A stretch of DNA of 38,961 nucleotides, taken from an uncultured bacterium (lineage in GTDB: Bacteria; CAYJRR01). Below are positions 10,396 to 31,610 of the stretch, piece after piece. Below the pieces are notes generated by a model. It worked only from the letters and a program-made list of their open reading frames with translations. It was not told the origin of the DNA and did not search any database. Numbering within the stretch: position 1 is the first letter of the stretch; the number at the start of each line of letters is the position of its first letter. The stretch spans positions 1 through 38,961 of the forward strand of contig CAYJRR010000030.1 in NCBI GenBank assembly GCA_964372275.1, written 5' to 3'. The translations under genes and the position numbers were made by a program.

Positions 10396-10884
10396 TTGAC
10401 CGGCATGGTCGCGCTCTCCGCCCTCGCCCTCGCGGTTTCGGTCCTCGCGACCGTGACCGACCTCCTCGAACGGAAGATCTTCAACTGGCTGACTCTGCCG
10501 GCGCTGGGGCTCGGCGTCGCGCTGCACGCCACCCCCGGCGCGGCGCCGTGGTGGACGGGGCTCGCCGGATCGCTCGCGGTCGGTCTCCCCTTCTTCGTCC
10601 TCTACGCAACCGGGGTGATGAAGCCGGGGGATGTGAAGCTCTTGATGGCGCTCGGGGCGATCCTCGGTCCACGGCAAGGGATCGAGATCGGCGTGGCGTC
10701 GATCATGCTGCACGGACCGATCAGTCTCGCGCTCCTGGTCGGGCACCGCCGACTCGGAAATCTGCTCGCGATGTGGCGCGCGGGATGGAGCTCCGACCGG
10801 GCGCTGCTGGCCCCCTACGGATTCTCGATCGCGCTGGCGGTCTTCGGATCGGTCGCCTATCACCTGGCCGGCCGGTCCGGCTGA
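10396..10884 (+). CDS. tadV: Prepilin peptidase (A24 family), CpaA/TadV-like
   Basis: A 162-aa polytopic membrane protein carrying DLLERKIFNWLTLPAL and a second acidic-residue region, typical of CpaA/TadV. It sits directly after the two flp genes. A TTG start is at 10396; an ATG alternative is at 10405. Confidence 0.75.
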   Translation: MTGMVALSALALAVSVLATVTDLLERKIFNWLTLPALGLGVALHATPGAAPWWTGLAGSLAVGLPFFVLYATGVMKPGDVKLLMALGAILGPRQGIEIGVASIMLHGPISLALLVGHRRLGNLLAMWRAGWSSDRALLAPYGFSIALAVFGSVAYHLAGRSG

Positions 10885-12623
10885 GGCGACACCGCGCCGA
10901 GCAGCAACGGGTGGACCTCCTCCGGCAGGAGCGTGCCGAGCTCCTTTCCGGGCGGAAAGGCCGGCCCCCGAGCGAAGAGCACACCATCGCCCGAATGCCA
11001 GTTGCCGAACAGCGCGTTCTCCTGGCGCGCCATCCCGTGGTCGCCGATCACCAGCGTGGTGGTCCGCTCGTCGCCGGGCTCGAGGAGCCATGCGATCTTG
11101 CGATCGAACCGGTTCAGGTACGCCGCCATGAACGGCGCGAGACGTTTCGAGTCGTCCGGCGAGAACCCGGGCACCTGCCCCCGTTCGTCGGGAAGGAGGA
11201 CGTGCGCCGTCAGGTCGACCCCTTCGAAGTAGACCGCCAGGACGGACGGCTGCCGATCGTCGCGAAGGTGGCGCGCCGCCTCCCCGCACGACTGGGTGTT
11301 CAACCAGCCGTAATAGGCGTTCGAGAAGGCGTGGGTGCGCGCCGATTCCACCGTTCCGACCGCCTGCCGCTCGACGAACGCGGCGATCTCCTCGTCGCGG
11401 AGCGGTACCAGGTTCACCAGCTCCGGATCGGGCGGCTCCCCGGCGGCGCGCCGGAACGGCGCGATCCGGGACTCCGTTTCGGCGGGCCAGACGAGGTGCT
11501 CCTCCTCCGCGCGGTAGTGGAAGAGGAGCTCGGTCTTCGACGGAGCCCATCGATCGGAGACGTTGACCCCCGACACCGGCTCCACCGGCCAGGTCGCGGG
11601 CCAGCAGACGAGGCCGATCCGGCCCAGCGCCGGCAGCTTCCAGAACGGCGTCCCGCGGCGGTGCAACCGCGTGGCGGGAAGGATCGAGATCCAGCCGGCG
11701 CGCCAGGCCCCGAGCAGGGGGACGGCGAGCAGCCCCGAGACCGGGTCGGTGTAGAGTCGGTCGACGGGGATCGTTCCGAACGCCGGATCGTTGACGAAGA
11801 ACTCGAAGTTCGAGATCCGGTGCTTCGACGGCGGTAGCCCGGTGGCGATCGAGGTCCAGATCCCGGACGACAGTTGCGGAGGCGCGCTTCGCACCGAACC
11901 GACCGCCGCCGATGCCGCGAATCGCGAGAGGGCCGGCATCTCGTCCGCGTAGGTCCGAACGAGATCGAGCCCCAGACCGTCGATCGCGACGACGACCAGC
12001 CGCGGAAACGGAGCCGCCTCGGCAACGCCGGCGGCGTCGATGCCGTCGTCCCCTCGAGCCGGCCCTTGTCCCGTGAAGAGGGCCGCCACGACGAGGAGCG
12101 CCGCGGTGCCGCCGGCGAAGGGCCCCGCCTTCGCCGGGCTCGCGGAGAGGCGATCGACCCATCGGCTCGCCAGCCGCGCGCAGAGGACGGCGGCGGCGAT
12201 GCCGACGAGCGGCGCGACGAGCAGACGGACGTTCGACACGCCGCTCAACAGCCCGACCTGACGTCCGGTCCACCGGACCAGCGCGAAGACCGCTCCTCCG
12301 GCGGCAAGCAGCGGAGGGAGCACGAGGAAGAGCCCTTCGACGAACGATGCCAACTCGGTGCGCGCGGGGATCCGTTTCCGGCGGCGGTGAAGGTGGAGGA
12401 GCGCGGCCGGGATCGAGGCGACGGCGCCGGCGACGACCGCCGCGAGGATCGTCGCGGCCGGGGGGATCGCGTCGATTCGAAGGGCCGCGATCACCGTGTA
12501 GCCGGCGCCCACCAGACCCGAGCCGGCGACCGCCCACCGAGCGCTTCCCGCCATCTTTGGCTCGCACTCTACCACCGGCAGCCCGCGTCGCGCCGGGGGC
12601 AGAGAATCCCCCAAACGCGACAA
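10860..12623 (-). CDS. Membrane-anchored alkaline-phosphatase-superfamily enzyme (type I phosphodiesterase / nucleotide pyrophosphatase-like)
   Basis: About four to five N-terminal TM helices. The catalytic domain has the metal-site motif VVVAIDGLGLDLV near its start and LVIGDHGM near its end. It is convergent with tadV, with overlapping 3' ends. The likely start is M at 12555 (MAGSARWAV...). Confidence 0.7.
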   Translation of the reverse strand: MSRLGDSLPPARRGLPVVECEPKMAGSARWAVAGSGLVGAGYTVIAALRIDAIPPAATILAAVVAGAVASIPAALLHLHRRRKRIPARTELASFVEGLFLVLPPLLAAGGAVFALVRWTGRQVGLLSGVSNVRLLVAPLVGIAAAVLCARLASRWVDRLSASPAKAGPFAGGTAALLVVAALFTGQGPARGDDGIDAAGVAEAAPFPRLVVVAIDGLGLDLVRTYADEMPALSRFAASAAVGSVRSAPPQLSSGIWTSIATGLPPSKHRISNFEFFVNDPAFGTIPVDRLYTDPVSGLLAVPLLGAWRAGWISILPATRLHRRGTPFWKLPALGRIGLVCWPATWPVEPVSGVNVSDRWAPSKTELLFHYRAEEEHLVWPAETESRIAPFRRAAGEPPDPELVNLVPLRDEEIAAFVERQAVGTVESARTHAFSNAYYGWLNTQSCGEAARHLRDDRQPSVLAVYFEGVDLTAHVLLPDERGQVPGFSPDDSKRLAPFMAAYLNRFDRKIAWLLEPGDERTTTLVIGDHGMARQENALFGNWHSGDGVLFARGPAFPPGKELGTLLPEEVHPLLLGAVSPQPDRPAR

Positions 12624-12806: not shown

Positions 12807-13013
12807 ATGATCAAGAACTTCCTTCGCAACGAAGAGGGCCAGACGGCGACCGAGTACATGCTCATCATTTCGGTCGTGGTCATCGCGATCGTTGCCGCCG
12901 CCTATGCGTTCCTTCCGCAGTTCCAGGCCGGCGTGCAGGCGCTCGCCAGCGACGTGAAGACGATCCTGTCGGGCGGCAACATCGGCGGGTCCGGCGTCCA
13001 GCGCAACAACTGA
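12807..13013 (+). CDS. flp: Flp prepilin, paralog 3
   Basis: A 68-aa product: MIKNFLRNEEG/QTATEYMLIISVVVIAIVAAAYAFL, with a Gly-rich tail (SGGNIGGSGVQRNN). The ATG is in frame with the track ORF ending at 13013. Confidence 0.8.
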   Translation: MIKNFLRNEEGQTATEYMLIISVVVIAIVAAAYAFLPQFQAGVQALASDVKTILSGGNIGGSGVQRNN

Positions 13014-13094: not shown

Positions 13095-13307
13095 GTGCGG
13101 CGTCGTCTCGAACACAGAGCGAGATCGCGGACCGGTCAGACGGTGACGGAGTACCTCCTCGTCATCACCGTATTCGTGATCGCGATCGCCGCCGTGGTCT
13201 ACGACCCGATCGCCGCCGCCTTCCTCGACGGGACCGACGGTTTCTACAAGACCGCGGTGCAGGGCGCGGAGACCGGCGGCTACGACGTGACGAACGGACA
13301 GCGGTAG
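13095..13307 (+). CDS. flp: Flp prepilin, paralog 4
   Basis: A 70-aa product: VRRRLEHRARSRTG/QTVTEYLLVITVFVIAIAAVVY. GTG start. Confidence 0.75.
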   Translation: MRRRLEHRARSRTGQTVTEYLLVITVFVIAIAAVVYDPIAAAFLDGTDGFYKTAVQGAETGGYDVTNGQR

Positions 13308-13313
13308 CCCGAT

Positions 13314-13535
13314 CTACTGTCCGCGAGGGGCCGGTCCGCCGTAGCTGTCGTCGGCGAACCATCGCTCGAAGTCGGCCATGAAGGCGTCGATCCCCTGCTG
13401 GAGCGGCGGATAGAACTCGTAGCCGGCCGCCACCACCGCCAGCACGATCACGCTGATCGCCAGCATGTATTCGGTCGACGCCTGACCGCGATTCCGGCCG
13501 AATCGCCGCCCGAGCCGCCGAAAAGGGATTCGCAT
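13314..13535 (-). CDS. flp: Flp prepilin, paralog 5 (minus strand)
   Basis: The C-terminal 73 aa of track ORF 13314..13931 read MRIPFRRLGRRFGRNRG/QASTEYMLAISVIVLAVVAAGYEFY. The upstream part of that ORF is Arg-rich junk. It is convergent with flp4, with only 6 nt between the stop codons. Confidence 0.7.
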   Translation of the reverse strand: MRIPFRRLGRRFGRNRGQASTEYMLAISVIVLAVVAAGYEFYPPLQQGIDAFMADFERWFADDSYGGPAPRGQ

Positions 13536-13815: not shown

Positions 13816-14910
13816 GTGGTCGGACGACGGCGAAACGGGGAACGCGGGCAGGCGGCGGTGCTGCTGGCGATTCTCTGCTTCGTCCTGGTGCTGATGATCG
13901 CCTTCACCACCAACCTCGGAAAGCTGGTCACCGAGAAGATGGCGATGCAGAACGCCGTCGACCTCGCCGTCTATTCCGGGGCCGCGACCCAGGCCGGCTA
14001 CCTCAACAAGATGCGGGAGATCAATCACGACATCTGGAAGGTGCACAACGAGGTTCGCGAGAAGTTTGCGATGAGCGGCGAGGCCGGGATCGGAAATCCA
14101 TTTTTCCAGCAGCCGGGAATCGTCCAGGCCTGCGGCCCGATCTACACCACCGGACCGCTGACCGCGCCGCAGGCGGAGCAGTTCAAGACCCAGAAGAAGA
14201 TGGAGATCCAGAATCTCCGGTTCGACTTTCAACAGGCCAATCAAGCCGCTCCCGGTGCCTCCTTGAACGCCGCGCGTCAGGCGGCGAATCTCAACTTTGC
14301 CGGAACGGGACAATCGGGCCGATTCAACCTGAAGTCCCCGATGTCGTCGGCGCTCTTCCCGGCGGGAAGTGATCAGATCCATTGGGACTACTCCGGCTGG
14401 TCCTACTCTGTCTGCGGGATCATCCCCAACGGTCCGGTCTACGCCGAGTTCGTCACCCAGGACCAGGCCGACAGCTGGTTCTACTGGGACTCCGATCCGG
14501 GCGAGATCCTGTTCGCCGCCGGCATCGAGAACGCGGCGCCGTTGAGCCCCTTCGTCGACGTGGGGAGCATCGGCGGCTGGTACTTCTCGAAGTGCTCCAC
14601 CGGCGGGATGAACACCGCGGGTCGGTGTCCGATGCCGGTCTACGCCGCGGCGCACCCGTTCTTCGGCAAGATGGGGACGATGAAGAGCGGACCCGACGCG
14701 TCGGAATGGACCGGCCCCTCCGACGACTTCATCAACAATCCGGATCCGAAGGCGATCGACAAGAACGACCTCGACGACTACAAGGTGAGGGGCGGGACCT
14801 ACCAGGACTACCAGGCGCGGTTCATCGGGATCTTCGAACAGAACGCCAACGTGCTCGGCGGGTCGCAGCTGCTCTCGCAGGTGCCGAGCGGAAACCAGAT
14901 GGATCACTGA
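13816..14910 (+). CDS. TadG-like / TadE-G pseudopilin with a large C-terminal domain
   Basis: The N-terminus (RRNGERGQAAVLLAILCFVLVLMIAFTTNLG) fits the Tad pilus-assembly TadE/G-like N-terminal domain. A ~300-aa extracellular domain follows. Confidence 0.65.
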   Translation: MVGRRRNGERGQAAVLLAILCFVLVLMIAFTTNLGKLVTEKMAMQNAVDLAVYSGAATQAGYLNKMREINHDIWKVHNEVREKFAMSGEAGIGNPFFQQPGIVQACGPIYTTGPLTAPQAEQFKTQKKMEIQNLRFDFQQANQAAPGASLNAARQAANLNFAGTGQSGRFNLKSPMSSALFPAGSDQIHWDYSGWSYSVCGIIPNGPVYAEFVTQDQADSWFYWDSDPGEILFAAGIENAAPLSPFVDVGSIGGWYFSKCSTGGMNTAGRCPMPVYAAAHPFFGKMGTMKSGPDASEWTGPSDDFINNPDPKAIDKNDLDDYKVRGGTYQDYQARFIGIFEQNANVLGGSQLLSQVPSGNQMDH

Positions 14911-15263
14911 TGATCGAACGTCGACCGCGTCGGACGAACGAGAAGGGCCAGTCGGCCGTCGAGGTCCTCTTCGGGATCCCGGTGCTGCTTACGATCTTCG
15001 TGCTCGGCTTCCAGCTCTTCGAGATCACCTGGAACGCGCAGTACGCGCACGTGCGAAGCCGCCAGGAGATGATGAACTTCGCGGCGCATCGGCCGTGCTT
15101 CGCCAACAACGACGGCGGAACGAACTCGCTCGGGAACGGCACCATCTCCCCGTCCCAGGCGCGGATCGACGCCACCCTCAACCCCGGAGCGCCGGGCTCC
15201 CCGGGACTGGTCCGCAGGCGCCAGATCCGGCACCGGGCCTCGGTCTACTGCAACCAACCGTGA
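14910..15263 (+). CDS. TadE-like minor pilin
   Basis: MIERRPRRTNEKGQSAVEVLFGIPVLLTIFVLGFQLFEI matches the TadE N-terminal domain. The start overlaps the upstream stop (TGATG). Confidence 0.65.
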   Translation: MIERRPRRTNEKGQSAVEVLFGIPVLLTIFVLGFQLFEITWNAQYAHVRSRQEMMNFAAHRPCFANNDGGTNSLGNGTISPSQARIDATLNPGAPGSPGLVRRRQIRHRASVYCNQP

Positions 15264-15265: not shown

Positions 15266-15826
15266 ATGAACGCGCCGAAACGATCGATCCTGCGAAGCCA
15301 GCGCGGCCAGTCGACGGTCGAGCTGGCGCTCATGATGCCGATCGTCTTCACCGTCTTCTTCTGGATGTTCGAGTCGAACATCCTGATGTCCGGGATGCAC
15401 ATGACGGCGTACGGCGCCTACGTCGGCGCCCGCGCGCATCTCGTCGAGAACCAGGACAACGGCGTCCGCGAGCGCTCCGCGGTCCGGCGGGTTCTCACCG
15501 GCGGGATCTTCCGACAGAACTACTTCATGGGCGGTCGCTCGCCGCTGTTCCAGGTCTACGCGACGAACCGAGGCTCGATGATCGGACCGGGCACCGCGCC
15601 GTCGCACACCGCCTCCAGCGATGGGGTGGTGGTGACGGTTCCGATGTTCGCCTCTCTGCCCTACGTCCGGCACCTGTTCAACCTCGACGCGAGCGGAAAT
15701 CCCCGCGCGCCGCTCGGGATCCCCACCCACCTCGGCCCCGACGAGTGGACCGGGAACAGCGATCAGCGGTGGGGACTCGGAACGGGCTGCCAGCTCACCG
15801 ACAACAATCTGACCGACGACTGCTGA
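15266..15826 (+). CDS. TadE/TadF-like minor pilin
   Basis: MNAPKRSILRSQRGQSTVELALMMPIVFTVFFWMFE matches the TadE-like N-terminal domain. It is in frame with track ORF 15095..15826. Confidence 0.65.
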   Translation: MNAPKRSILRSQRGQSTVELALMMPIVFTVFFWMFESNILMSGMHMTAYGAYVGARAHLVENQDNGVRERSAVRRVLTGGIFRQNYFMGGRSPLFQVYATNRGSMIGPGTAPSHTASSDGVVVTVPMFASLPYVRHLFNLDASGNPRAPLGIPTHLGPDEWTGNSDQRWGLGTGCQLTDNNLTDDC

Positions 15827-15957: not shown

Positions 15958-16785
15958 GTGAAGAACCGTCGTGCCCTGATCTATTCGGTGCTCTGCGCGT
16001 TCTTCGCGATGCTGTTCCAGTGCTCCTACATCAGCAAGAAAGAACGCCTTCTCCAGGGCGACTACGAACCGATCAAGGTGATGGTCGCCAAGAAGAACAT
16101 CCCCAAAGACTTCAAGCTCGACGAGACGATGGTCGAGTTCGTCGACATCCCCAAGAAGTACGTCCAGCCGAAAGCGCTCAAGGACCTCAACGAGATCCTG
16201 GGGCAGATCTCCGGCTCCACCATCTTCCAGGGGGAGCAGATCATCGCCACCAAGCTGCTCTCGATCGAGGACGCGGGGCTGGCGTTCAAGGTGCCGAAGA
16301 ACTTCCGCGCCTTCACCATCGCCGTCGACGATGTTTCGGGCGTCGGCGGGCACGTCCGGCCGGGGAACTACATCGACCTGATGGGGATCTTCGACTTCGG
16401 CGATGAGCGGAAGTCCGACCAGCGCGCGGTGACGCTCCTCCAGAACGTCTACGTCCTCGCCGCCGGCGGCGACCTCGGACAGGCGGTCCCGTTCAACGCC
16501 TCGAGCGATGACGTGGAACGGATCAACGAGATCGTGCGTCAGAAGGACGAGAAGAACTACCGTGGCTACCGGAACGTGACGCTCATGCTGACCGCCGAGG
16601 AGGCCCAGAAGGTGATGTTGGCCCAGGAGGTCGGTTCCTTGAGCCTCACGCTGCGCTCCCTGTGGGAGGGGAACACGCAGCTCCCTCTCGACAAGGTGTC
16701 GGTCAACAGCGCGGTCGGCATCCCCGAGAAGGTCTACCGCCGGCCGCGGGCATCGTATCGGGAGATTCGCGCAGGGAGCTACTAG
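15958..16785 (+). CDS. cpaB: Flp pilus assembly protein CpaB/RcpC
   Basis: A 275-aa product. N-terminal TM anchor, then SAF-like and RcpC-like regions (KVPKNFRAFTIAVDDVSGVGGHVRPGNYIDLMG... VTLLQNVYVLAAGGD). Confidence 0.85.
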   Translation: MKNRRALIYSVLCAFFAMLFQCSYISKKERLLQGDYEPIKVMVAKKNIPKDFKLDETMVEFVDIPKKYVQPKALKDLNEILGQISGSTIFQGEQIIATKLLSIEDAGLAFKVPKNFRAFTIAVDDVSGVGGHVRPGNYIDLMGIFDFGDERKSDQRAVTLLQNVYVLAAGGDLGQAVPFNASSDDVERINEIVRQKDEKNYRGYRNVTLMLTAEEAQKVMLAQEVGSLSLTLRSLWEGNTQLPLDKVSVNSAVGIPEKVYRRPRASYREIRAGSY

Positions 16786-16804: not shown

Positions 16805-18256
16805 TTGGAGCGGGCGCGTCGGGCGGTTCGGGAGATCCTCGCGGCGGCCGCGACCGCGGCGCTGGTGATCGTGGTCGCGCCCGCGGCCGCCCGAGCGGCC
16901 GAAGAGGTGGTGATCGTCGTCGGGAAGCAGGTGACGGTGAACATCCCGTTCCCGATCGGCAGCGGTGCCAACTCCAACCCCGAAGTGGTGCAGGCGGTGG
17001 TCGATCCCCAGAGCCGACGGATCATCTTCTTCGGCCGTCGGGTCGGTTCCGCCAGCTACGTGGTGTTCGACGCTCGCAGCCGCACCAACCGCAAGGAGTA
17101 CGACATCCGCGTCGTCGGAGAGGACCTGGCGCGGATCCGCGACAACCTGCAGCGGCAGATCGGCGACATCGAAGGGGTCGAGGTCAAGCTGCAAGGGGAC
17201 CAGGTGATCGTCGAGGGGGACGTGGCCCTGGAGTCGGAGCTGCAGCGGATCGAGAAGCTGACGCTCAATCGTCCGAACATCCAGAACCTGGTGCGCCTCT
17301 CGCCGTTGGCGATCAAGGCGACCGCCCGCACCATCCAGCAGGCGATCGACCGCCCGGAGGTCACCGCCCGGCCGCTGAAGGACAAGATCCTCCTGGAAGG
17401 GGACGTCTACTCCGACGAGCAGAAGACGCGGGCGGAGATGATCGCCACCACGCTCTTCTCCAACATCGTCAACGTCATCGAGGTGAAGCAGGTGCCGCGG
17501 CCGCCGAGCCGCGCCAAGACGATCGTGCTCAACACCCACTTCCTGGAGCTGTCCAAGGAGATGCTCGACACCTGGAGCATCAACTGGGGGACGGTGGCGC
17601 TCTCCGAGAGCGGGCTGCAGGCCTTCTTCCAGATGGACCTGGTCAACGGCGAGTTCGTCGGCGACTTCAACACCACCATCTCGGGAACGATCTCGGCCTT
17701 CCTCCCCAAGCTCGACCGCGCCAAGCCGGAAGGGGTGGTGCGGACGCTGGCCAATCCGGTGATCACCACCAAGGACGGCGAGGCGGCGTCGATCTTCACC
17801 GGGGCCACCGTCCCGTTCATCGTCGGCGTCGCGGCGAACGGAACGCCGATCGTCGATTTCAAGGACGTCGGGATCTCCCTCAACGCCACCCCCTTCGCGC
17901 AAGGGGACAGCGTCGACCTGAAGATGACCGTCGAGGCCAGCGACGTCGGGAACGTCGACCTGGCGAGCGACCAGACCGGCATCCTGAAGTCGACCTTCTC
18001 CTGCTCCCAGTTCGTCCGCGCCGGGGAAAGCGTGGCGATCGGCGGACTGTTCCGCGTCGGCGATAACGTCGTCTACAACAAGCCGGTCAACGCGCGGCAG
18101 TTCGAGGACTCGATCTTCCGGCTGTTCCTCTCGCGCTCCTACCAGAAGCGCAAGGGGCAGTTCATCGTCTTCATCACGCCGACCGTCCACGACGAGAGCA
18201 GCAGCGCCAACCGCGAGATGAAGGACGTCTTCAACCTGCAGGAAGTCGGCCAGTAG
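16805..18256 (+). CDS. cpaC: Tad secretin CpaC/RcpA
   Basis: Signal peptide, then N-terminal secretin-associated domains, then a C-terminal secretin domain (VRTLANPVITTKDGEAASIFTGATVPF...GILKSTFSCSQFVRAGESVAIGGLFR). Confidence 0.85.
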   Translation: MERARRAVREILAAAATAALVIVVAPAAARAAEEVVIVVGKQVTVNIPFPIGSGANSNPEVVQAVVDPQSRRIIFFGRRVGSASYVVFDARSRTNRKEYDIRVVGEDLARIRDNLQRQIGDIEGVEVKLQGDQVIVEGDVALESELQRIEKLTLNRPNIQNLVRLSPLAIKATARTIQQAIDRPEVTARPLKDKILLEGDVYSDEQKTRAEMIATTLFSNIVNVIEVKQVPRPPSRAKTIVLNTHFLELSKEMLDTWSINWGTVALSESGLQAFFQMDLVNGEFVGDFNTTISGTISAFLPKLDRAKPEGVVRTLANPVITTKDGEAASIFTGATVPFIVGVAANGTPIVDFKDVGISLNATPFAQGDSVDLKMTVEASDVGNVDLASDQTGILKSTFSCSQFVRAGESVAIGGLFRVGDNVVYNKPVNARQFEDSIFRLFLSRSYQKRKGQFIVFITPTVHDESSSANREMKDVFNLQEVGQ

Positions 18257-18258: not shown

Positions 18259-20445
18259 ATGCCGGTCAATCCGAACTGCTTCGTCATCTCGGTCATCGGC
18301 GCGCGGGACGGGGTCGGCAAGACTGTTTTCTCCTGCAACTCGGCGCTCTCCTTCCAGCGCGAGACGCGTCGCCGCGTCTGCCTGATCGACCTCGACCCGG
18401 TCTACTGCGGCGACCTGAACAACCTGATCGGCGCGCCGATCACCAAGTCGTTCGCCGACCTCGCGCCGGTGGTCGAACGCGCGCAGGCCTCGCTGCTCAA
18501 GGGGTTCATCACCCCGCACGCCTCGGGGATCACCCTCTTCCCGCTCTACAAGGAGGCCAAGGAGCTGGCGGCAATCCCGCCGGCGGCGGTGGGGCGGACG
18601 CTCGAACTGTTGACCGAGATCAACGACTTCCTGATCGTCGACGTCGGGACGGTGGTCAACGACGTCACGCTGAAGGCGCTGGAACGATCGACTGCGGTCT
18701 TCATCGTCACCACCCCCGACGTGATGGTCCTGGAGCAATCGCGGAAGCTGGTCGAACAGCTCCAGAACCTGCACTTCCCCCGCGAGATGCTGAAGGTGAT
18801 CCTGAACAAGTTCGAAGGGGAGAAGGGGCCGATCTCGCTCGAGGTGATTGCCCAGAAGCTGCAGCGCCAGCTGCTCACCGCCATCATGCGCGACGACGCG
18901 ACGGTCAGCCAATCGGTGAACATGTCGCAGCCGTTCGTGCTCGCCGCGCCGCGGGCGCCGATCACCAAGAAATACGACGACCTGGCCCGCAACCTCCTCG
19001 AGCGCGGGATCCTGGCCAACCTGCGGTCGGCGGCGAAGCCGGCGGGGGTCGCGCTCGAGCCGTCGACGGGAGGCGCCGCGCTCGTCAAGGGGCCGGCGGT
19101 CTTCAAGGCGACCGCCTCGCCGACGGCGGGCAAGTTCGGAGCCAAGAAACAGATCCAGCTCGATCCTCGCACGCAGCTCAAGCAGCGGATCCACAAGCGG
19201 CTGATCGAGGTGCTCGACCTGAAGCGCCTCGACACCGAGCTCAAGGGGAAGGAGAACAAGGAGGAGCTGCTTCGGGAGCGGACGGAGCAGGCGATCATCG
19301 CCATTCTCGACCAGGACGCGCCCGACGTCCGCGATCGCGAGGAGCGCAAGGCGATCGTCCGCGAGGTGCTCAACGAGGCGCTCGGCCTGGGGTGCCTGGA
19401 GGACCTCCTCGCCGATCCGACGGTGAGCGAGATCATGGTGAACCACCCCCACCAGATCTACATCGAGAAGTCGGGGAAGCTGACCCTTTCCGAGACGACC
19501 TTCACCGACGAGGGGCAGCTCCGCGCCGTGATCGAGCGGATCGTGGCGCCGATCGGGCGGCGCATCGACGAGAAGAGCCCCTACGTCGACGCCCGGCTGC
19601 GCGACGGCAGTCGCGTCCACGCCATCATCCCGCCGCTGGCGCTGAACGGGTCGTGCCTCACCATCCGGAAGTTCTCCAAGGACCCCTTCACCTACAAGGA
19701 CCTGGTGAAGTTCGGCTCCTTCACCGACGAGATCGCCGACTTCCTTCGCGCCTGCGTCGAGGCGCGCCTCAACATCATCATCTCGGGCGGCACCGGCTCG
19801 GGGAAGACGACGCTCCTGAACGTCATGTCCGGATTCATCCCGGCCGACGAGCGGATCATCACCGTGGAGGACTCCGCCGAGCTGCAGCTCCCGCAGGACC
19901 ACGTCGTTCGCCTCGAGACCCGGCCGAAGAACATCGAAGGGGAAGGGGAGGTCACGATCCGCGACCTGGTGCGCAACACGCTCCGGATGCGGCCCGACCG
20001 CATCGTGGTGGGGGAGTGCCGCGCCGGCGAGGCGCTCGACATGTTGCAGGCGATGAACACCGGCCATGACGGCTCACTGACCACCGTCCACTCCAACTCG
20101 CCACGGGACTGCATCGCCCGGCTGGAGACGCTGGTGATGTTCGCGGGTCTCGACCTGCCGAGCCGCGCCATCAAGGAGCAGATCGCCGGCGCCATCAACA
20201 TGATCGTGCAGCAGACGCGGCTGTCCGACGGCTCGCGCAAGATCACCTACATCACCGAGGTCACGGGGATGGAAGGACAGGTGATCACCATGCAGGACAT
20301 CTTCACCTTCAAGCAGACGGGGGTCGACGACCGGGGGAAGGTGGTCGGGAAGTTCATCTCCACCGGTTTCATCCCGAGGTTCGTGGAAGGGCTGCAGGCG
20401 CGCGGGATCAAGCTCCCCAAGGGGATCTTCCGTGGCGGGGACTGA
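18259..20445 (+). CDS. cpaF: Fusion protein: an N-terminal ParA/MinD-like CpaE/TadZ ATPase-fold domain joined to the CpaF/TadA secretion ATPase
   Basis: Residues ~1-270 carry a deviant Walker A (IGARDGVGKT), a Walker A' (VCLIDLDPVYCGD) and a Walker B (FLIVDVGT), as in CpaE/MinD. There is no receiver domain. A Pro/Ala linker follows. A complete CpaF/T2SSE ATPase follows (GGTGSGKTTLLN Walker A, the DRIVVGECRGAEA-like region, His box TGHDGSLTTVHSN). The whole protein is one uninterrupted 728-aa frame. Confidence 0.85.
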   Translation: MPVNPNCFVISVIGARDGVGKTVFSCNSALSFQRETRRRVCLIDLDPVYCGDLNNLIGAPITKSFADLAPVVERAQASLLKGFITPHASGITLFPLYKEAKELAAIPPAAVGRTLELLTEINDFLIVDVGTVVNDVTLKALERSTAVFIVTTPDVMVLEQSRKLVEQLQNLHFPREMLKVILNKFEGEKGPISLEVIAQKLQRQLLTAIMRDDATVSQSVNMSQPFVLAAPRAPITKKYDDLARNLLERGILANLRSAAKPAGVALEPSTGGAALVKGPAVFKATASPTAGKFGAKKQIQLDPRTQLKQRIHKRLIEVLDLKRLDTELKGKENKEELLRERTEQAIIAILDQDAPDVRDREERKAIVREVLNEALGLGCLEDLLADPTVSEIMVNHPHQIYIEKSGKLTLSETTFTDEGQLRAVIERIVAPIGRRIDEKSPYVDARLRDGSRVHAIIPPLALNGSCLTIRKFSKDPFTYKDLVKFGSFTDEIADFLRACVEARLNIIISGGTGSGKTTLLNVMSGFIPADERIITVEDSAELQLPQDHVVRLETRPKNIEGEGEVTIRDLVRNTLRMRPDRIVVGECRAGEALDMLQAMNTGHDGSLTTVHSNSPRDCIARLETLVMFAGLDLPSRAIKEQIAGAINMIVQQTRLSDGSRKITYITEVTGMEGQVITMQDIFTFKQTGVDDRGKVVGKFISTGFIPRFVEGLQARGIKLPKGIFRGGD

Positions 20446-20487: not shown

Positions 20488-21390
20488 GTGATCCTTCGCA
20501 TCGTCTCCAGCGCGATCCTGGGGGTCGCGGCGTTCCTGTTCGTCGTCGGCTCCTACGAATGGTTCGCGCGGCGCCTGCGCGAGGCCACCACCGAATACGT
20601 CGCCTGGATGGTGACGATGTTCGACCGGATGTTCCTCACCGTCACCGCGCGGCAGTGCGTGATCCTGATCGCCGCCAGCACCGTCGGGACCGGGCTGATC
20701 ATGTTCTGGCTCACCGGGGCGTTGAGCGGAGCGACCTGGAAGTGGTTCATCCGGCTCCTCATCATCGGCGTGGCGATGAAGGGACCGTGGATCTTCCCCA
20801 TGGGCTGGTCGCTGCCGCGGAGGATCGTCAACTGGATGTGGCGGCGGCGGGTGAACAAGTTCGACGAGCAGATGCTCGACGGGCTGACCTTCCTCGCGAA
20901 CTCGATGAAGTCGGGGCTGTCGCTGCTGCAGGCGATCGACATGATCGTGCAGGAGCTCCCGAACCCGCTCTCGCAGGAGTGGGCGCTGGTATTGAGTCAG
21001 CAGAAGCTCGGGGTGCGGATCGACGAGGCCCTCGACAACCTGGAGAAGCGGATCGGCTCCGAGGACATCCAGATCGTCTGCACCAGCATCGGCATCCTCC
21101 GCGAGTCGGGCGGCAACCTGGCCGAGGTGTTCGACACCATCGCCTACACCATGCGCGAGCGGCGGAAGGTGGAGGGGAAGATCTCGGCGATGACGGCCCA
21201 GGGGGTGATGCAGGGGATCATCATCATGGCGATGCCGTTCGTCCTGGCGGCCGTCCTCTACGCCATGGATCCGGTCCTGATCGCCCGGTTGTGGCAGACG
21301 GTGCTCGGATGGGTCCTCCTGATCATGATGATGACCCTCCAGTTCGTGGGCGGGTACATCATCAAGAAGGTCGTGACCATCGAGGTCTAG
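20488..21390 (+). CDS. tadB: T2SSF-domain platform protein TadB
   Basis: A 300-aa polytopic membrane protein with the T2SSF domain (LDGLTFLANSMKSGLSLLQAIDMIV...). GTG start preceded by GGAGGAGG. Confidence 0.85.
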   Translation: MILRIVSSAILGVAAFLFVVGSYEWFARRLREATTEYVAWMVTMFDRMFLTVTARQCVILIAASTVGTGLIMFWLTGALSGATWKWFIRLLIIGVAMKGPWIFPMGWSLPRRIVNWMWRRRVNKFDEQMLDGLTFLANSMKSGLSLLQAIDMIVQELPNPLSQEWALVLSQQKLGVRIDEALDNLEKRIGSEDIQIVCTSIGILRESGGNLAEVFDTIAYTMRERRKVEGKISAMTAQGVMQGIIIMAMPFVLAAVLYAMDPVLIARLWQTVLGWVLLIMMMTLQFVGGYIIKKVVTIEV

Positions 21391-21449
21391 AGCGGTCGCG
21401 GCCCGCCGGCGCTGGCCGGGTTCCCGGCGAAACTGCTAGATTCGGGCCG

Positions 21450-22331
21450 ATGCTGGTCCAGCTGGGAAGCCCGGTCGATCCGGAGAAGGCCCGCGCCAAG
21501 GGCCGCGAAGACGACGCGCGCCGGCGGCGCCTGGAGCGGGAGCTCCTGCGCGCCACCGGGCGGGCGATCGCCGACCACGAGCTGATCGCACCCGGGGACC
21601 GGATCCTGGTGGCGATGAGCGGGGGGAAGGACTCCTACACCCTGATGCGCATCCTCACGCTGCTCCGGGAGCGGGCGCCGGTGCCGTTCGAGCTGGTCGG
21701 AGTGAACATCGACCAGGGGTACCGCGGCTACCGCGCCGACGTCGTCGAGGACTACCTGGCGGCGAACGGCTACGAACGCCACGTCGAATCGACCGACATC
21801 GACGAGGCGGTGAAGGCGATCGTCGAGCCGGGCGGGACGGCCTGCGCCCTTTGCGCGCGCCTGCGCCGCGGGGTCCTCTACCGCCTGGCGGGGGAGCTGC
21901 GCTGCAACAAGATCGCCCTCGGGCACCACGCCGACGACGTCGTCGAAACCCTGCTCCTCAACCTCTTCTTCAACGGCACCCTCGCGGCGATGCCGCTGAA
22001 GCTCCACGCGGACGACGGGCGGAACGTGGTGATCCGCCCCCTCGGTTACTGCCGCGAGGAGTCGATCCGGGAGTATGCACGCTTGATGCGGTTTCCGGTC
22101 ATCGGCTGCATGTGCCAGCACTGCGGCGATACGTCGTTGCAGCGGCAGAAGGTGAAGGCGCTGCTGCGCGACCTCGAGGCCCGGAACCCGGGGATCAAGA
22201 GCAGCCTCCTGCGCTCGCTGAGCCGCGTGAAGCCGTCGCACCTGCTCGACCGCGGGCTCCTCCGCGCCGTCCGCGGATCTCGGCCGGGCGGCCCGGCGGC
22301 GAACGAACGGGCGGGCGGCGGCGAGGTCTGA
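21450..22331 (+). CDS. ttcA: tRNA 2-thiocytidine biosynthesis protein TtcA (PP-loop ATPase)
   Basis: PP-loop SGGKDS, plus CxxC pairs (CALCARLRRGVLY; CMCQHCGD) typical of TtcA. The ATG at 21450 is in frame with the long track ORF 20559..22331, whose upstream part is not coding. Confidence 0.8.
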   Translation: MLVQLGSPVDPEKARAKGREDDARRRRLERELLRATGRAIADHELIAPGDRILVAMSGGKDSYTLMRILTLLRERAPVPFELVGVNIDQGYRGYRADVVEDYLAANGYERHVESTDIDEAVKAIVEPGGTACALCARLRRGVLYRLAGELRCNKIALGHHADDVVETLLLNLFFNGTLAAMPLKLHADDGRNVVIRPLGYCREESIREYARLMRFPVIGCMCQHCGDTSLQRQKVKALLRDLEARNPGIKSSLLRSLSRVKPSHLLDRGLLRAVRGSRPGGPAANERAGGGEV

Positions 22332-25182: not shown

Positions 25183-26103
25183 CTAAGCCACGGTCGGCCC
25201 GCGGAGCCTGGCGATCTCGTCGCGGACGAGGCGTTCCAACGCGTCGGGGTCGAGCGACCGTGCCGACGCAGGACGCGGGAGGCTTCCCGGGCCGTCCCCG
25301 CACCGAGGCGTATCCGCGGCGGTCGCGATCGGGGGCTCGACCGTGGCCCGCGGCGAGCGCCTCGTCGAGTCGGCGTCTGTGTCGGCGCCCCGCAGCGACT
25401 CCGAGGGACGACTCTGGGAGCCGGCTGCACGGGCGAGGGGCCCGAGTCCCGCGGCCGCGCGCTTCTGGAGGAGCGTCGCGACGTCGGCTTCGGGGAGTCG
25501 GTTGACGCGCCCGAGCTGCCGCGCCGCAAGCTCGATCGTCGCCAGGTGCTCCACCAGCTCGACGCGCAGGTACGCCTGCTCGACGTCGACGCCGACGGCG
25601 ATCACGCCGTGGTTGGCGAGCAACGCCGCGTCGGCGTCGACGAGCGCAGCCGCCAGCCCCTCCTCCAGCGCGGGGCTCCCGGGAAGGGCGTAGCCGACGA
25701 GCGGCGCCCCCGGACCGAGCGAGACGATCGCCTCGGCGAGGATCGGCGTCGTCAGCGCAAGCCCCGCGACGGCGAAGCCGGTGGCGGTGGGAGGATGGGC
25801 GTGCACCACCGCCTTCGCGTCGGCGCGCTCGCGGTAGCAGCGCAGGTGCAGGTGCAACTCCGAGAACGGCTTCCCCGCGGTTCGCTGCCCGTCGAGGAGA
25901 TTCCCGTCCGCCGATAGGAGAAGCACGTCGTCCGCGCCGATCAGGCGCTTGGATACGGCGGTCGGCGTGGCCAGGATCCGCCCGTCGTCGAGCCGGACGG
26001 TGACGTTCCCGTCGTGGTTCGCGGCCCAGCCGCGCTTCCACAAGAGCCTCGAGGCCGATGCGATCGCCTCCCGCAGCCGCTGCTCGTCCGCCGGCAGCGT
26101 CAC
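25183..26103 (-). CDS. Class II aldolase/adducin-family protein (fuculose-/rhamnulose-phosphate aldolase-like) with a C-terminal extension
   Basis: A ~215-aa aldolase core with metal-binding His residues (ELHLHLRCY...VVHAHPP...LANHGVIAVG). A ~90-aa disordered Pro/Ser/Ala/Arg linker follows. A terminal amphipathic helix (LDPDALERLVRDEIARLRG) closes the protein. GTG start in a GTGA overlap with the upstream stop. Confidence 0.85.
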   Translation of the reverse strand: MTLPADEQRLREAIASASRLLWKRGWAANHDGNVTVRLDDGRILATPTAVSKRLIGADDVLLLSADGNLLDGQRTAGKPFSELHLHLRCYRERADAKAVVHAHPPTATGFAVAGLALTTPILAEAIVSLGPGAPLVGYALPGSPALEEGLAAALVDADAALLANHGVIAVGVDVEQAYLRVELVEHLATIELAARQLGRVNRLPEADVATLLQKRAAAGLGPLARAAGSQSRPSESLRGADTDADSTRRSPRATVEPPIATAADTPRCGDGPGSLPRPASARSLDPDALERLVRDEIARLRGPTVA

Positions 26104-26420
26104 GCCCGGCCTCCCGGACCGCGGCGGGCGGCGCCGTCGAGCACCGATCCGTCCTCCATCTCCACCCGGTCGACGACCGCCATCACCACCGCGTGGATCG
26201 GATCGCTCTCCTTCCCCGCAAGCTGGCGCGCGGTGTTCCCTTCGCGCGAACAGAGGACGGTGTCACCGGGTCCGGCGCGGACCGTGTCGACCGCCAGGAA
26301 CAGGCGGCCGGCGTCCTTCCCCTTCGCGTCGATCGGCTGGCAGACGAGGACGATCTTTCCGTCGTAGCAGGCGTGCTTCTCCACCGCGACCGCGTTGCCG
26401 GTGATGCGCGCGAGGATCAC
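26100..26420 (-). CDS. BMC vertex (pentamer) protein, EutN/CcmL/PduN family (BMC-P)
   Basis: VILARITGNAVAVEKHACYDGKIVLVCQPID...GDTVLCSREGNTARQ matches the EutN_CcmL fold. The GTG start overlaps the stop of the upstream BMC-P (GTGA). The rest of track ORF 26100..26588 is Arg-rich extension. Confidence 0.8.
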   Translation of the reverse strand: MILARITGNAVAVEKHACYDGKIVLVCQPIDAKGKDAGRLFLAVDTVRAGPGDTVLCSREGNTARQLAGKESDPIHAVVMAVVDRVEMEDGSVLDGAARRGPGGRA

Positions 26421-26752
26421 GGCCGGTCTCCGCCGGGTTTCGTCCGGGCCTTCCGGGGTCCGTCCGCCAGGTCCGTGGCGTAGATCCCTTCGGCGAAGAT
26501 CTCCTCGGCGATCGCCACCACCGCGGCGTCGACCGGGACGAACGTCTCCGGCAGCGCCAGCGCCGCCTCCCGTCCGCCGACCCACCACACCACCTGTCCC
26601 GGCCCGGCGCTGAAGCGATCGGCCACGACGAACGGTTCTCCCACCGGGAGCATCGTCGTATCGACCGGCTGCGCCAGCAGCAGCTTCACCCCTTCGAGGC
26701 CGGGCGACTTCCGCTCGGCGACGACCGTTCCCAGCACGCGCGCCAGTTCCAT
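26417..26752 (-). CDS. BMC vertex protein, EutN/CcmL family (BMC-P)
   Basis: MELARVLGTVVAERKSPGLEGVKLLLAQPVD...PFVVADRFSAGPGQVVWWVGGREAA. The start ATG lies 23 codons inside track ORF 26417..26821. Confidence 0.8.
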   Translation of the reverse strand: MELARVLGTVVAERKSPGLEGVKLLLAQPVDTTMLPVGEPFVVADRFSAGPGQVVWWVGGREAALALPETFVPVDAAVVAIAEEIFAEGIYATDLADGPRKARTKPGGDRP

Positions 26753-26783
26753 CAGCGGCCCTCCTCGAGACGGTGGCGACGCG

Positions 26784-27362
26784 TCATCGCCGCCCCGTGA
26801 GGTTGGCGACCAGGTCGGCATGCGGCCGGGGGATCAGCTCCACGCCGACGAGGAACCCGTCCTGCTCGGCTCTCGCTTTCGCCGCGGCGACCGCCGCTTC
26901 CAGATCGGCGTGCGGCCCGGTCAGCGTGAAGTAGCCCTTGCCGCCGATCCCGTGGCCGAGGCGGATCTCGATCACCCGCACGTCGGCCGTCTTGGCGGCG
27001 ACGTCGGCGGCGGCGACGGTGGTGGCGAGGGAGAGCATCTCCACGATTGCCAGGGCGTCGACGTCGGGCACCTCGATCCTGCGACCGAGCGCGGCCACGA
27101 CGTCGGGGTGGACTTGCGGGAGGATCATCTGGTTGATCACCGTCGCGCCGCCGAGCGCCTTCCCTTCGGCGAGCGACTCCTCCACCGCCGCCACCTCGCC
27201 GGTGAAGACGAAGAGGTACTTTCCGGAGGAGACCGGCTCGGCGATCCGGACGGTGACCGGCGCGCGCTTGCTGACGGCATCGAGCACGCGCGCGCCGCGC
27301 CCGATGCTCGACAGCTCGAGCAGCGCGAGGGCCGGATCGGAGGACGGGGAGGCCGCGGGCAT
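26784..27362 (-). CDS. Tandem-BMC-domain shell protein (BMC-T)
   Basis: A 192-aa product with two BMC domains (ALALLELSSIGRGARVLDAVSKRAPVTVRIAEPVSSGKYLFVFTGEVAAVEES; ALAIVEMLSLATTVAAADVAAKTADVRVIEIRLGHGIGGKGYFTLTGPHADLEAAV). The start ATG lies 43 codons inside track ORF 26784..27491. Confidence 0.8.
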   Translation of the reverse strand: MPAASPSSDPALALLELSSIGRGARVLDAVSKRAPVTVRIAEPVSSGKYLFVFTGEVAAVEESLAEGKALGGATVINQMILPQVHPDVVAALGRRIEVPDVDALAIVEMLSLATTVAAADVAAKTADVRVIEIRLGHGIGGKGYFTLTGPHADLEAAVAAAKARAEQDGFLVGVELIPRPHADLVANLTGRR

Positions 27363-27433
27363 GAAGACCCCGCAGGATAGCGAAGCGGTCGGGGGAGGTA
27401 AACGAGCGTGCCGCCGGGGTATACTGCGTAGTC

Positions 27434-28537
27434 GTGGCGCACGGGAAGGCGGTGGTCTGGTCCCCGGTGAGCTACGAGCCGGGTCGCCCATGGCTGTGGA
27501 GCCGCCCGATCGACCGCCTGTTCGTCGCCGGCGGCGGCTTCTTCCTCGTCGCGGCCGTCCTCGTGCCGCTTTCGCTGCTGCCGTCGGTCGGCCCTTCGCT
27601 CAACGCGCTGCTGCTGCACCTCTCGGTTCTGGTCAACTACCCGCACTACACCTCCACCTACCAGGTGATCGTCCGCGAGCGGGAGCGCCGGCCCGCAAGC
27701 TTCCGGACGCTCCTCTGGAGCGCCTTTCCGATGGCGGCGCTCCTGGTCGTCGCCGGCCGGTGGCCCGACCTCCTGTGGGGGGTCGTCGTCCGGGGCTACC
27801 TTACCTGGTCGGCCTACCACTACGCCGCGCAGCACTTCGGGATCGCCGCGATGTACTGCGCGCGCGCGGGGACGCCGCTGGGCGCCCGCGAGAAGGGACC
27901 GTTGCAGGCGGCCTTTCTCGGCGTCGGCGGCTTCATGATGCTGATGGCCAACACCGTCGGAGGCGACGCCGACCTGGCCGCTCGCGTCGTGGGGCTGACC
28001 GAAAACGGCGGGGAGGTGCCGATCGCCGGGTTTCCGTCGTGGATGTACGGCGTCGGCCTGGCCCTGGTCGCGGCGAGCGGCGTGGCGTTCGCCGTGGCCG
28101 AGCGGCGGTTCGCCGCCCGCACCGGACGGACCTTCCTGCGCGAGGTCTGGATGTTGTTCGCGACCAACCTCGCCTGGTTCGTCGTTCCGAACCTGCGCCT
28201 GCCGGGGGGAGAGGGTTGGATGTGGCCCGGTCTCGCCCTGTGCCTGTTGGGCCTGCCGCCGTTCTTCCACGGGCTCCAGTACATGGCGGTGACGGGCCAC
28301 CGCAGCCGGACGACCGGTCCGGTCCGTCCGATCTGGCTCTTCGCCGGACTGGTGGCCGCAGGCTATCTGTTGTTCCACGGCCCGGTGCCGCTCCTGCCGG
28401 CGATCGCGCCCGTCGACGCTACACGGGGGATCCTGCTCCTGGTGTCGGTGATCAACCTCCACCACTTCTGGATGGACGGCCTGATCTGGCGTCGGGCGCG
28501 CGTGGCGGCCCTCCCCGCGTCGCCGCCCGTGTCGTGA
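27434..28537 (+). CDS. Polytopic membrane protein of unknown function (about eight TM helices)
   Basis: A 367-aa product rich in Trp/Tyr/His-containing hydrophobic helices (LNALLLHLSVLVNYPHYTSTYQ; WSAYHYAAQHFGIAAMY; LLLVSVINLHHFWMDGLIWRR). It is divergent from the BMC-T gene. The opposite-strand ORF 27137..28465 is Arg-rich junk. Confidence 0.55.
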   Translation: MAHGKAVVWSPVSYEPGRPWLWSRPIDRLFVAGGGFFLVAAVLVPLSLLPSVGPSLNALLLHLSVLVNYPHYTSTYQVIVRERERRPASFRTLLWSAFPMAALLVVAGRWPDLLWGVVVRGYLTWSAYHYAAQHFGIAAMYCARAGTPLGAREKGPLQAAFLGVGGFMMLMANTVGGDADLAARVVGLTENGGEVPIAGFPSWMYGVGLALVAASGVAFAVAERRFAARTGRTFLREVWMLFATNLAWFVVPNLRLPGGEGWMWPGLALCLLGLPPFFHGLQYMAVTGHRSRTTGPVRPIWLFAGLVAAGYLLFHGPVPLLPAIAPVDATRGILLLVSVINLHHFWMDGLIWRRARVAALPASPPVS

Positions 28538-28540
28538 TCC

Positions 28541-29335: not shown

Positions 29336-29523
29336 GACTCCCCCCCCCGCCTTGTCTTACTCCACCAAGTGTGCCACTCCGGACGCATCTTAAGGTATGG
29401 GAATTTCAAGGAAACTTGATGTCGGGCTGGGGCGGCTCGCCCCCGGAGTTGGGCGGGGGGCGGAGACGATCGAACCCAGCGGCGGGTGGGGGCGATGCCC
29501 CGCCGGAACGGCGCCGAACCCCG

Positions 29524-30969: not shown

Positions 30970-30975
30970 CGGTGG

Positions 30976-31284: not shown

Positions 31285-31295
31285 CGGGACGGACC

Positions 31296-31610
31296 CTACT
31301 TCTTCCCGCCGACCACGCGCGCCGCGCCCGCCCCCGCGCGGCCGAGCGGCAGCGCGTCCTCGATGGCGTCGTGCGGCCGCGGAATGACGTGGACGCTGAC
31401 CAGCTCGCCGACGCGTTGGGCTCCCTTGGCCCCGGCCTCGGTGGCGGCCTTCACCGCCGCAACGTCGCCCCTCACGATCGCGGTCACGTAGCCGCCGCCG
31501 ATCTTTTCGTAGCCGATCAGCTCGACCTTCGCGGCCTTCACCATCGCGTCCGAGGCCTCGACCATCGCGGCGAAACCCTTGGTTTCGATCATCCCGAGCG
31601 CTTCTGCCAT
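31296..31610 (-). CDS. BMC hexamer shell protein (BMC-H, PduA/CcmK-like)
   Basis: [60 protein letters not shown]...VHVIPRPH. This is the canonical BMC domain. An AGAGGGA RBS sits 9 nt upstream. The start ATG lies 68 codons inside track ORF 31296..31814. Confidence 0.9.

Follow-up and report, generated by a model that had tools for sequence, protein, structure and literature searches.

The tadZA reading frame and its protein

The window analysed here, 38,961 nucleotides of contig CAYJRR010000030.1 from an uncultured bacterium (assembly GCA_964372275.1), carries a complete Tad-like locus (Table 1). Between the genes for its secretin and its TadB-type platform protein, the open reading frame (ORF) listing of the window gives one uninterrupted ORF with an ATG start, here termed tadZA, which very probably encodes a TadZA-type fused ATPase of the Tad (type IVc) pilus machine. 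Only 2 nt separate the ATG from the stop codon of the secretin gene (TAG, 18254-18256), and AGGAAG stands 13 nt upstream of the ATG; with the operon so closely packed, tadZA has no space for a further N-terminal domain. The original prediction, made from the nucleotide sequence before any database search, described a single in-frame ParA/MinD-CpaF polypeptide, and profile searches of the 728-residue product bear this out. Pfam CbiA (residues 10-222, 42.4 bits, cut-off 25.4) and ParA (PF10609, residues 9-246, 33.0 bits, cut-off 27.1) match the N-terminal part and T2SSE the C-terminal part (residues 376-652, 220 bits), all above their cut-offs; no FHA match was found with Pfam inside the ORF. 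NCBIfam models for MinD, CpaE-like Ssd and BcsQ match residues 7-250 (E ~1e-12), and a TadA-family model matches residues 341-665 (E 1.9e-103). The model TIGR03819 (TadA-family conjugal-transfer-associated ATPase) reaches 346.2 bits, below its trusted cut-off of 373.15; the protein is outside this particular sub-family, which has no bearing on CpaF membership. The motifs named in the original prediction (GARDGVGKT, LIDLD, FLIVDVGT, GGTGSGKT and the Asp and His boxes) all stand where it had placed them. It further held that the locus has no separate cpaE and that the receiver domain usual in TadZ is missing, and both statements agree with tblastn: eight canonical CpaE proteins match the window only at 18154-19008, and their receiver parts match nothing in its 38,961 bases. 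No second cpaE-like or cpaF-like sequence (ParA-like, T2SSE) was found in the window.

Structural modelling of the whole chain with AlphaFold2 (AF2), from a 36-sequence alignment, returned the same arrangement of a ParA/MinD-fold domain, a low-confidence linker and a CpaF-like motor. The predicted local distance difference test score (pLDDT) is 85-96 across residues 8-256 (10-residue block means) and below 50 at residues 268-298, followed by a helical segment (303-375) and then by two ATPase domains. The N-domain modelled alone has a mean pLDDT of 90.8 and a predicted template modelling score (pTM) of 0.89; the C-terminal domain (CTD) of the motor is less confidently modelled, with pLDDT 40-70 at residues 600-680. 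When the C-terminal module was compared with the PDB by Foldseek, the top matches were Caulobacter CpaF structures (8RJF, 9E24, 8RKD; E 1e-35, ~425 columns, 49-50% identity), in an alignment that takes in the three-helix N-terminal domain 1 (NTD1), NTD2 and the CTD; the window motor thus resembles Caulobacter crescentus CpaF in all three parts. This C-terminal module of 426 residues is a complete CpaF/TadA, catalytically intact by its motifs. Across an alignment of 36 fused homologs, K516, E537, D538, E541, E586, H603, H611 and the Arg cluster are invariant in the TadA half. In many high-GC fused homologs, including one with a Myxococcota label, the chain closes with a variable Gly/Pro-rich stretch and then a conserved basic PRGRR tail (alignment columns 800-824). 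Neither the window protein and its nearest relatives nor proteins of the Bdellovibrio type have this tail.

Caulobacter CpaF begins with a disordered NTD0 (residues 1-79) that extension does not require (PMC11300603). The equivalent stretch of the window protein is the inter-domain linker, residues 257-302. This linker had been described as Pro/Ala-rich; the Ala part of that description stands (11 of 46 residues), but Pro accounts for only 4, alongside 6 Gly and 6 Lys. Within it lies the motif AVFKATASPTAGKF (residues 280-293, 19096-19137), which contains T285 and is conserved as VFK[AS]TA.P[TS].G[KR]F in the four-member clade to which the window protein belongs. The motif may, speculatively, be a candidate for partner binding or phosphorylation. 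Other fused clades carry other conserved linker motifs, e.g. [WY]xKxRGxK.

Relatives of the fusion and known systems

Among 5.8 billion proteins searched, over 100 proved to be full-length homologs (53-82% identity, 96-100% coverage), all with both CbiA/ParA and T2SSE. The unusualness that the original prediction implied for the fusion is not supported: homologs of the same architecture are numerous, and TadZA has already been named and studied in Bdellovibrio bacteriovorus, its missing receiver domain included. Genomic context was assessed in 80 species-representative loci, the best by similarity; this is a similarity-ranked set, and counts within it are not frequencies. Thirteen of these best 80 loci encode a TadZ-TadA fusion in a single ORF, on complete Bdellovibrio chromosomes and in other metagenome-assembled genomes (MAGs). 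In 55 of the 80, a separate gene precedes cpaF. A near-universal fusion was first suggested by tblastn matches to residues 9-724 in 60+ genomes, and was rejected when inspection at the ORF level resolved most of these into two adjacent genes.

Two further arrangements were seen among the homologs. Five entries of the homolog list (P0002-P0005, P0012) are ~1150-aa proteins with three tandem CpaF/TadA ATPase modules each; in P0002 these span residues ~30-445, 451-798 and 805-1153 and are 55-61% identical to the motor part of the window protein. Such a protein is a covalent 'trimer', and two of them could build a hexamer. In an Eremiobacterota MAG (CAWCIZ010000003.1; L077:8765-12610), one stop-to-stop ORF holds CbiA (TadZ-like), T2SSE and T2SSF, possibly a TadZ-TadA-TadB triple fusion or else an artefact of assembly or gene merging.

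The motor domains of 115 sequences (364 columns) were compared in a neighbour-joining (NJ) tree with 100 bootstrap replicates. One side of this tree holds all 55 motors with a separate cpaE and one plain CpaF, and the other holds all TadZ-fused and FHA-fused motors. The exact split between canonical and extended motors has 32% bootstrap support, or 81% if up to two taxa are misplaced, and monophyly of the FHA-fused motors has 0%. Support for the window's own clade, comprising the window protein and three metagenomic homologs at 79-83% identity, is 100%. A 'core' fused clade, recovered in 91/100 bootstraps, joins it to other fused homologs (one labelled Myxococcota) and to the Bdellovibrionota/Oligoflexia loci L001-L006. 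By this NJ tree, in which the window protein groups with the Bdellovibrionota fusions, it goes back to the same fusion event as the Bdellovibrio TadZA type. An older or an independent origin is possible for the fusions found in Omnitrophota, Elusimicrobiales, WOR-3 and Eremiobacterota; those of WOR-3 (L043) and Eremiobacterota (L077) are divergent CbiA+T2SSE fusions by Pfam. Eight of the ten 'other-extension' motors are FHA+T2SSE proteins by Pfam, those of Archangium and Citreicoccus included. These data are evidence that TadZ and FHA are alternative N-terminal modules on related motors.

A fusion of this architecture is therefore not new; it is widespread and under experimental study. TadZA of B. 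bacteriovorus is a fusion with a flexible linker and without the atypical receiver domain, and its prediction is credited to an earlier reference; the gene is essential, and the protein's movement is dynamic and biased towards the invasive pole. Its TadZ region and linker are necessary and sufficient for binding the polarity hub RomR, which carries a degenerate receiver domain and is the only experimentally known TadZA partner (bioRxiv 10.64898/2026.07.08.737194). A literature text search returned no named TadZ-TadA or CpaE-CpaF fusions besides those of this preprint. The window protein and Bdellovibrio TadZA (Tad locus 1) alike combine a receiver-less TadZ, a linker and TadA in one chain, within an operon core of secretin, tadZA and tadB; the fusion of Bdellovibrio sp. 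HCB288 is 33% identical to the window protein in the N-domain and 61% in the C-domain. They differ in their P-loops (GGKGGVGKS in Bdellovibrio, GARDGVGKT in the window), and the window differs from Bdellovibrio in its base composition (~68% GC). Moreover, the Tad genes of Bdellovibrio are dispersed and lack a dedicated peptidase, whereas the window has peptidase, TadC, three FHA proteins and a Ser/Thr kinase in one locus. RomR, the Bdellovibrio partner, was not seen in the window.

Canonical CpaE/TadZ and CpaF/TadA, as in C. crescentus and Aggregatibacter actinomycetemcomitans, comprise the same two activities, with TadZ directly upstream of TadA, and the ATPase half of CpaE is homologous to the window N-domain. 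However, they are two polypeptides rather than one, and the receiver-like N-domain of TadZ (~130-150 aa) is absent from the window. A third comparison is with the Kil system of Myxococcus xanthus, which is FHA-rich and whose ATPase, KilF, has an N-terminal FHA domain; CpaE/TadZ is unmentioned in its description (Seef et al. 2021, PMC8460266). Kil-like systems are reported in Myxococcales, Bradymonadales and Bdellovibrionales. The window likewise holds an FHA-rich Tad-like locus, with three FHA proteins at 2527-7752, and KilF is likewise a motor with an extra N-terminal domain, FHA-fused motors falling on the same side of the tree as the window's. In contrast to the window, the Kil genes of M. 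xanthus are split over two clusters, and FHA-fused motors lie outside the core TadZA clade. The window protein was considered as an ortholog of KilF, and this was rejected because KilF bears FHA and not TadZ.

The N-terminal domain, alternative explanations and proposed function

The N-domain is best called a TadZ ATPase-domain homolog and not a canonical TadZ, because the receiver-like domain of canonical TadZ is absent. Its assignment to TadZ and not to MinD follows from gene position, sequence neighbours and the best solved relative, 3EA0. In the 55 loci with a separate gene before cpaF, residues ~140-400 of the encoded protein align with window residues 9-250 (E down to 1e-27), and its N-terminal ~130-170 residues are without counterpart in the window protein. 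With the N-domain as query, exhaustive searching of 1.84 billion representatives by HMMER gave 28 matches at E<=1e-30. Most of these are fusions of full length (711-762 aa) or fragments whose match starts at their own N-terminus, and two are ~390-aa proteins of CpaE layout. From ~1e-27 onward the matches are mostly proteins of 380-430 aa, matched from residue ~130-150. Three of six sampled neighbours of this size have Pfam Response_reg before AAA_31/CbiA/ParA, and the other three have an unassigned stretch of ~130-150 residues there. This is the layout of CpaE/TadZ and not that of MinD, which is ~260 aa long. The relative 3EA0, a ParA-family ATPase from Chlorobium tepidum, is a stand-alone protein without a motor, and its P-loop, KGGDGGS in the alignment, lacks the P-loop Lys. 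The fold search gave no discrimination of TadZ from MinD or FlhG for the N-domain, and the structural comparison list reads MinD 26.2, FleN 25.8 and FlhG 24.0.

The P-loop of this domain is peculiar. TadZ proteins have an atypical Walker A consensus, K/RGGxGxS/T (bioRxiv 10.64898/2026.07.08.737194), to which R-D-G-V-G-K-T of the window protein conforms at six of seven positions, the misfit being Asp at the second. Among 53 separate CpaE proteins adjoining cpaF, the position of R16 is Lys in 48 and that of D17 is Gly in all 53, and the position of K21 is Lys in only 22. The window protein alters two near-fixed TadZ positions, yet keeps the P-loop Lys that most TadZ proteins have lost. The window's clade has the pattern [KR]-D-G-V-G-[KR]-[ST] in common with further fused homologs of high GC, among them one with a Myxococcota label. 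Fusions of the Bdellovibrionota type read GGKGGVGKS here. KEGVGKT, QRGMGKT or KPGEGKS is found in other fused lineages, where Glu, Arg or Pro takes the place of Gly17. Arg replaces the canonical P-loop Lys in 4 of the 36 aligned homologs. In the TadZ half, G18, V19, G20, D46 and D128 are invariant across all 36, which argues that nucleotide binding by the TadZ domain is retained.

Two alternative explanations question whether the protein is what it seems. An assembly artefact, in which a frameshift or a lost stop joined a separate cpaE to cpaF, is conceivable in principle: the two genes are adjacent and co-oriented in 55 of the 80 loci listed, a single indel could fuse them, and the window contig stems from one assembly. 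We nevertheless give this next to no chance. The junction, for which the original prediction had raised the possibility of a frameshift, gave no sign of one: the GC content at third codon positions (GC3) is 0.88-0.98 in each 60-codon window of tadZA, linker included, with no dip and no frame switch, and homopolymer runs of at least 6 are absent from 18951-19350. Assemblies from NCBI, ENA, JGI and Logan contain over 100 homologs that span 96-100% of the query with both domain sets, and the 13 single-ORF loci described above, on complete Bdellovibrio chromosomes among others, have the same structure. Furthermore, the N-domain begins at residue ~8, with no room for a receiver, which a plain read-through from cpaE into cpaF would keep. 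The artefact is thus effectively refuted. Alternatively, the N-domain could be an ATPase of MinD/FlhG/FleN type recruited independently, making the protein a new MinD-motor chimera. This is highly improbable, given that the sequence neighbours in the exhaustive search show CpaE/TadZ and not MinD architecture, that tblastn scores to CpaE ATPase domains are 55-109 bits against phmmer scores of 39 for FlhG and 22 for MinD, and that the best structural and sequence match, 3EA0, has a TadZ-type KGGxGxS P-loop. The fused domain also holds exactly the place of cpaE relative to cpaF.

A further alternative accepts the TadZ ancestry and concerns what the domain does. It could be a degenerate, nucleotide-independent pseudo-ATPase scaffold that tethers the motor to FHA and kinase proteins, with phosphorylation of the linker as the real switch. 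R16 and D17 stand where separate TadZ proteins are near-invariant, the P-loop Lys has become Arg in four homologs, and TadZ is stated to bind ATP with low hydrolysis (PMC6668835). Beside the operon lie genes for three FHA proteins and for a Ser/Thr kinase that is kept in relatives; the linker carries a clade-conserved motif containing Thr, and in Bdellovibrio the linker is needed for partner binding. Against this, the P-loop residues G18, V19 and G20, as well as D46 and D128, do not vary across the 36 homologs, the window P-loop still matches [AG]x4GK[ST], and in the two closest relatives examined the FHA genes lie away from the operon. On balance, we consider a pseudo-ATPase improbable and prefer a TadZA-type fusion with a nucleotide-binding TadZ domain.

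In characterised Tad systems, the CpaF hexamer powers the pilus both as it extends and as it retracts (PMC11300603), and TadZ/CpaE arrives early at the assembly site and recruits other Tad components, with ATP binding, poor hydrolysis and ATP-mediated dimerisation (PMC6668835; bioRxiv 10.64898/2026.07.08.737194). By homology, the motor module of the TadZA-type fusion would form a hexamer beneath the TadB/TadC platform and drive extension and retraction. Its TadZ domain has lost the atypical receiver and is tethered to the motor by a flexible linker of ~45 residues; it would bind nucleotide and probably dimerise. Each motor hexamer would then bear six TadZ domains, potentially three dimers. TadZ and linker together would act as a docking module that carries the motor to the place of machine assembly, where a landmark or a signalling protein would receive it. 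The motor would be recruited and delivered in a single step with a fixed 1:1 stoichiometry, which the original prediction had proposed and which is a trivial consequence of covalent fusion. Its further proposals, polar targeting of the motor and control by the FHA/kinase module in place of a receiver domain, are not supported as they stand: a homologous Ser/Thr kinase does adjoin the operon in the two closest relatives examined, but RomR, the one TadZA partner established by experiment, itself has a degenerate receiver. Candidate partners are RomR, by analogy with Bdellovibrio, and the FHA proteins and kinase of the locus, suggested by their neighbourhood and by analogy with the FHA-fused KilF.

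Several points weigh against this interpretation. Relative to separate CpaE proteins, the changes K16->R and G17->D may have altered or abolished nucleotide binding or dimerisation. The window was found to hold no gene for a receiver, RomR-like or PilZ protein, and the recruitment partner is to that extent a guess. The phylogeny is an NJ tree of 364 columns and not a maximum likelihood one, and a role in prey contact or predation is drawn only as an analogy. It is also possible, though rather unlikely, that TadZA in the window lineage is wired to Kil-type phospho-signalling. In such a scheme the kinase would phosphorylate the linker (the T285 motif) or TadZ and the FHA proteins would capture it, so that recruitment would answer a signal, for example contact with prey or a surface, and would not depend on a polar landmark that is fixed. 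More broadly, N-terminal 'address' modules of the TadZ and FHA kinds would have been exchanged for one another as a single predator-associated clade of Tad motors evolved, and the lost receiver would be functionally replaced in trans.

Tad pili power adhesion and surface sensing and, in Myxococcus and Bdellovibrio, contact-dependent predation. A covalent fusion of a positioning domain with a motor is a natural experiment on how a motor reaches the right place, one that is being dissected in B. bacteriovorus. The fusion is no oddity of Bdellovibrio; it forms a large family across several phyla, of which one branch, with a distinctive R16, D17 P-loop, joins the fusion with the FHA/kinase accessory set typical of Myxococcus Kil. 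What is new here is modest: the high-GC lineage, Kil-type FHA and kinase genes in one locus, the R16/D17 P-loop, and the position of TadZ- and FHA-fused motors on the same side of the tree. These comparative data should be useful for work on Kil/Tad predation machines and establish no new principle.

The surrounding locus

The order CpaB-secretin-TadZA-TadB is common to the window, the other fused homologs of the core clade and the Bdellovibrionota fused loci. Two relatives, at 63% and 55% identity, keep a longer order of kinase (divergent), pilins, peptidase, TadE/G, CpaB, secretin, fusion and TadB; their kinases are 58% and 53% identical to that of the window, and their FHA genes are not adjacent to the operon. 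Over residues 1-225, the 2xFHA-TPR protein is 32-34% identical to what Archangium (L018) and Citreicoccus (L025) encode in the gene that directly follows FHA-type KilF; in M. xanthus this place is taken by kilD. The phosphodiesterase-family gene lies between peptidase and pilins, convergent with the peptidase gene and overlapping its 3' end by 25 nt. Of the three Flp-type pilin genes, the third runs against the first two and against the remaining operon, and it converges with the second.

Table 1. Features of the window, by position in the 38,961-base stretch; parts of tadZA follow its entry.
Feature	Position	Strand	Remarks
TadC-type platform protein (T2SSF)	1474..2394	+	Adjoins FHA module
DUF192 (COG1430) gene	2405..2749		Between TadC-type and FHA-PAS genes; overlaps start of FHA-PAS ORF as delimited
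FHA-PAS protein	2527..4461	+	
FHA-TPR protein	4458..5525	+	
2xFHA-TPR protein	5542..7752	+	
Ser/Thr protein kinase	7774..9684	-	Divergent from pilus operon
Prepilin peptidase (Peptidase_A24)	10396..10884	+	
Type I phosphodiesterase/nucleotide pyrophosphatase family gene	10860..12623	-	587 aa, membrane-anchored
Flp-type pilin	12807..13013	+	68 aa; G/QTATEY processing-site motif
Flp-type pilin	13095..13307	+	70 aa; GQTVTEY
Flp-type pilin	13314..13535	-	73 aa; GQASTEY
TadG-like pseudopilin	13816..14910	+	Pfam Tad
TadE/F-like minor pilin candidate	14910..15263	+	GQSAVEV motif; no Pfam match
TadE-like minor pilin	15266..15826	+	
CpaB/RcpC	15958..16785	+	Pfam RcpC + SAF; syntenic in all fused loci examined
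Secretin, CpaC/RcpA type	16805..18256	+	Pfam Secretin + T2SS-T3SS_pil_N
tadZA, TadZ(ATPase domain)-linker-TadA/CpaF fusion	18259..20445	+	728 aa; ORF, Pfam/NCBIfam, GC3
TadZ/CpaE-type ParA/MinD-fold ATPase domain	18280..19026	+	Residues 8-256; without receiver domain
P-loop GARDGVGKT	18298..18324	+	Residues 14-22; Arg16 for signature Lys, Asp for Gly17, canonical Lys21 kept
Switch I / Walker A' LIDLD	18382..18396	+	Residues 42-46; D46 invariant in 36 fused homologs
TadZ-domain Walker B FLIVDVGT	18628..18651	+	Residues 124-131; D128 invariant in 36 fused homologs
Flexible linker	19027..19164	+	Residues 257-302; Ala/Gly/Lys-rich, pLDDT <50 at 268-298
CpaF NTD1-like three-helix region	19165..19383	+	Residues 303-375; helices 303-318, 334-353, 360-375; compared with CpaF NTD1 (PMC11300603)
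CpaF NTD2	19384..19692	+	Residues 376-478; includes invariant Arg cluster RRIDEKSPYVDARLRDGSRV (434-453)
CpaF catalytic CTD	19693..20442	+	Residues 479-728; motor motifs
Motor Walker A GGTGSGKT	19786..19809	+	Residues 510-517
Motor Asp box	19852..19890	+	Residues 532-544
Motor Walker B	19990..20022	+	Residues 578-588
Motor His box	20056..20097	+	Residues 600-613
TadB-type platform protein (T2SSF)	20488..21390	+	
TtcA (tRNA 2-thiocytidine synthetase)	21420..22331		After tadB; NF007972, 333 bits, above cut-off
Bacterial microcompartment cluster	25183..32248	-	
Class II aldolase	25183..26103	-	Microcompartment cluster
EutN/CcmL vertex protein	26417..26821	-	Microcompartment cluster
PduT-like BMC-T	26784..27491	-	Microcompartment cluster
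Aldehyde dehydrogenase	29524..30969	-	Microcompartment cluster
Second vertex protein	30976..31284	-	Microcompartment cluster
CcmP-like BMC-T	31625..32248	-	Microcompartment cluster

The TtcA gene follows tadB. Its homologs P0139 and P0142 are reported on contigs that agree in length and source with those of the fused homologs P0009 (7879 bases, ENA) and P0006 (6723 bases, NCBI), which suggests conserved synteny in the window's clade. The nearest named matches of TtcA carry only the labels '[bacterium]' and Candidatus Polarisedimenticolia, at ~57% identity. Further downstream, the microcompartment cluster resembles a metabolosome of the Haliangium ochraceum type. This resemblance, the GC content, the conserved kinase and the GARDGVGK motif, which a Myxococcota-labelled homolog also has, raise the suspicion that the host may belong to Myxococcota. 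Two large predicted surface proteins flank this region (37113-38885 and 23442-25016, both on the - strand), one combining FG-GAP repeats with a cadherin-like domain, the other containing a PKD domain. In the relatives L082 and L083, the fused gene has a similar protein, of FG-GAP/UnbV_ASPIC type, encoded nearby.

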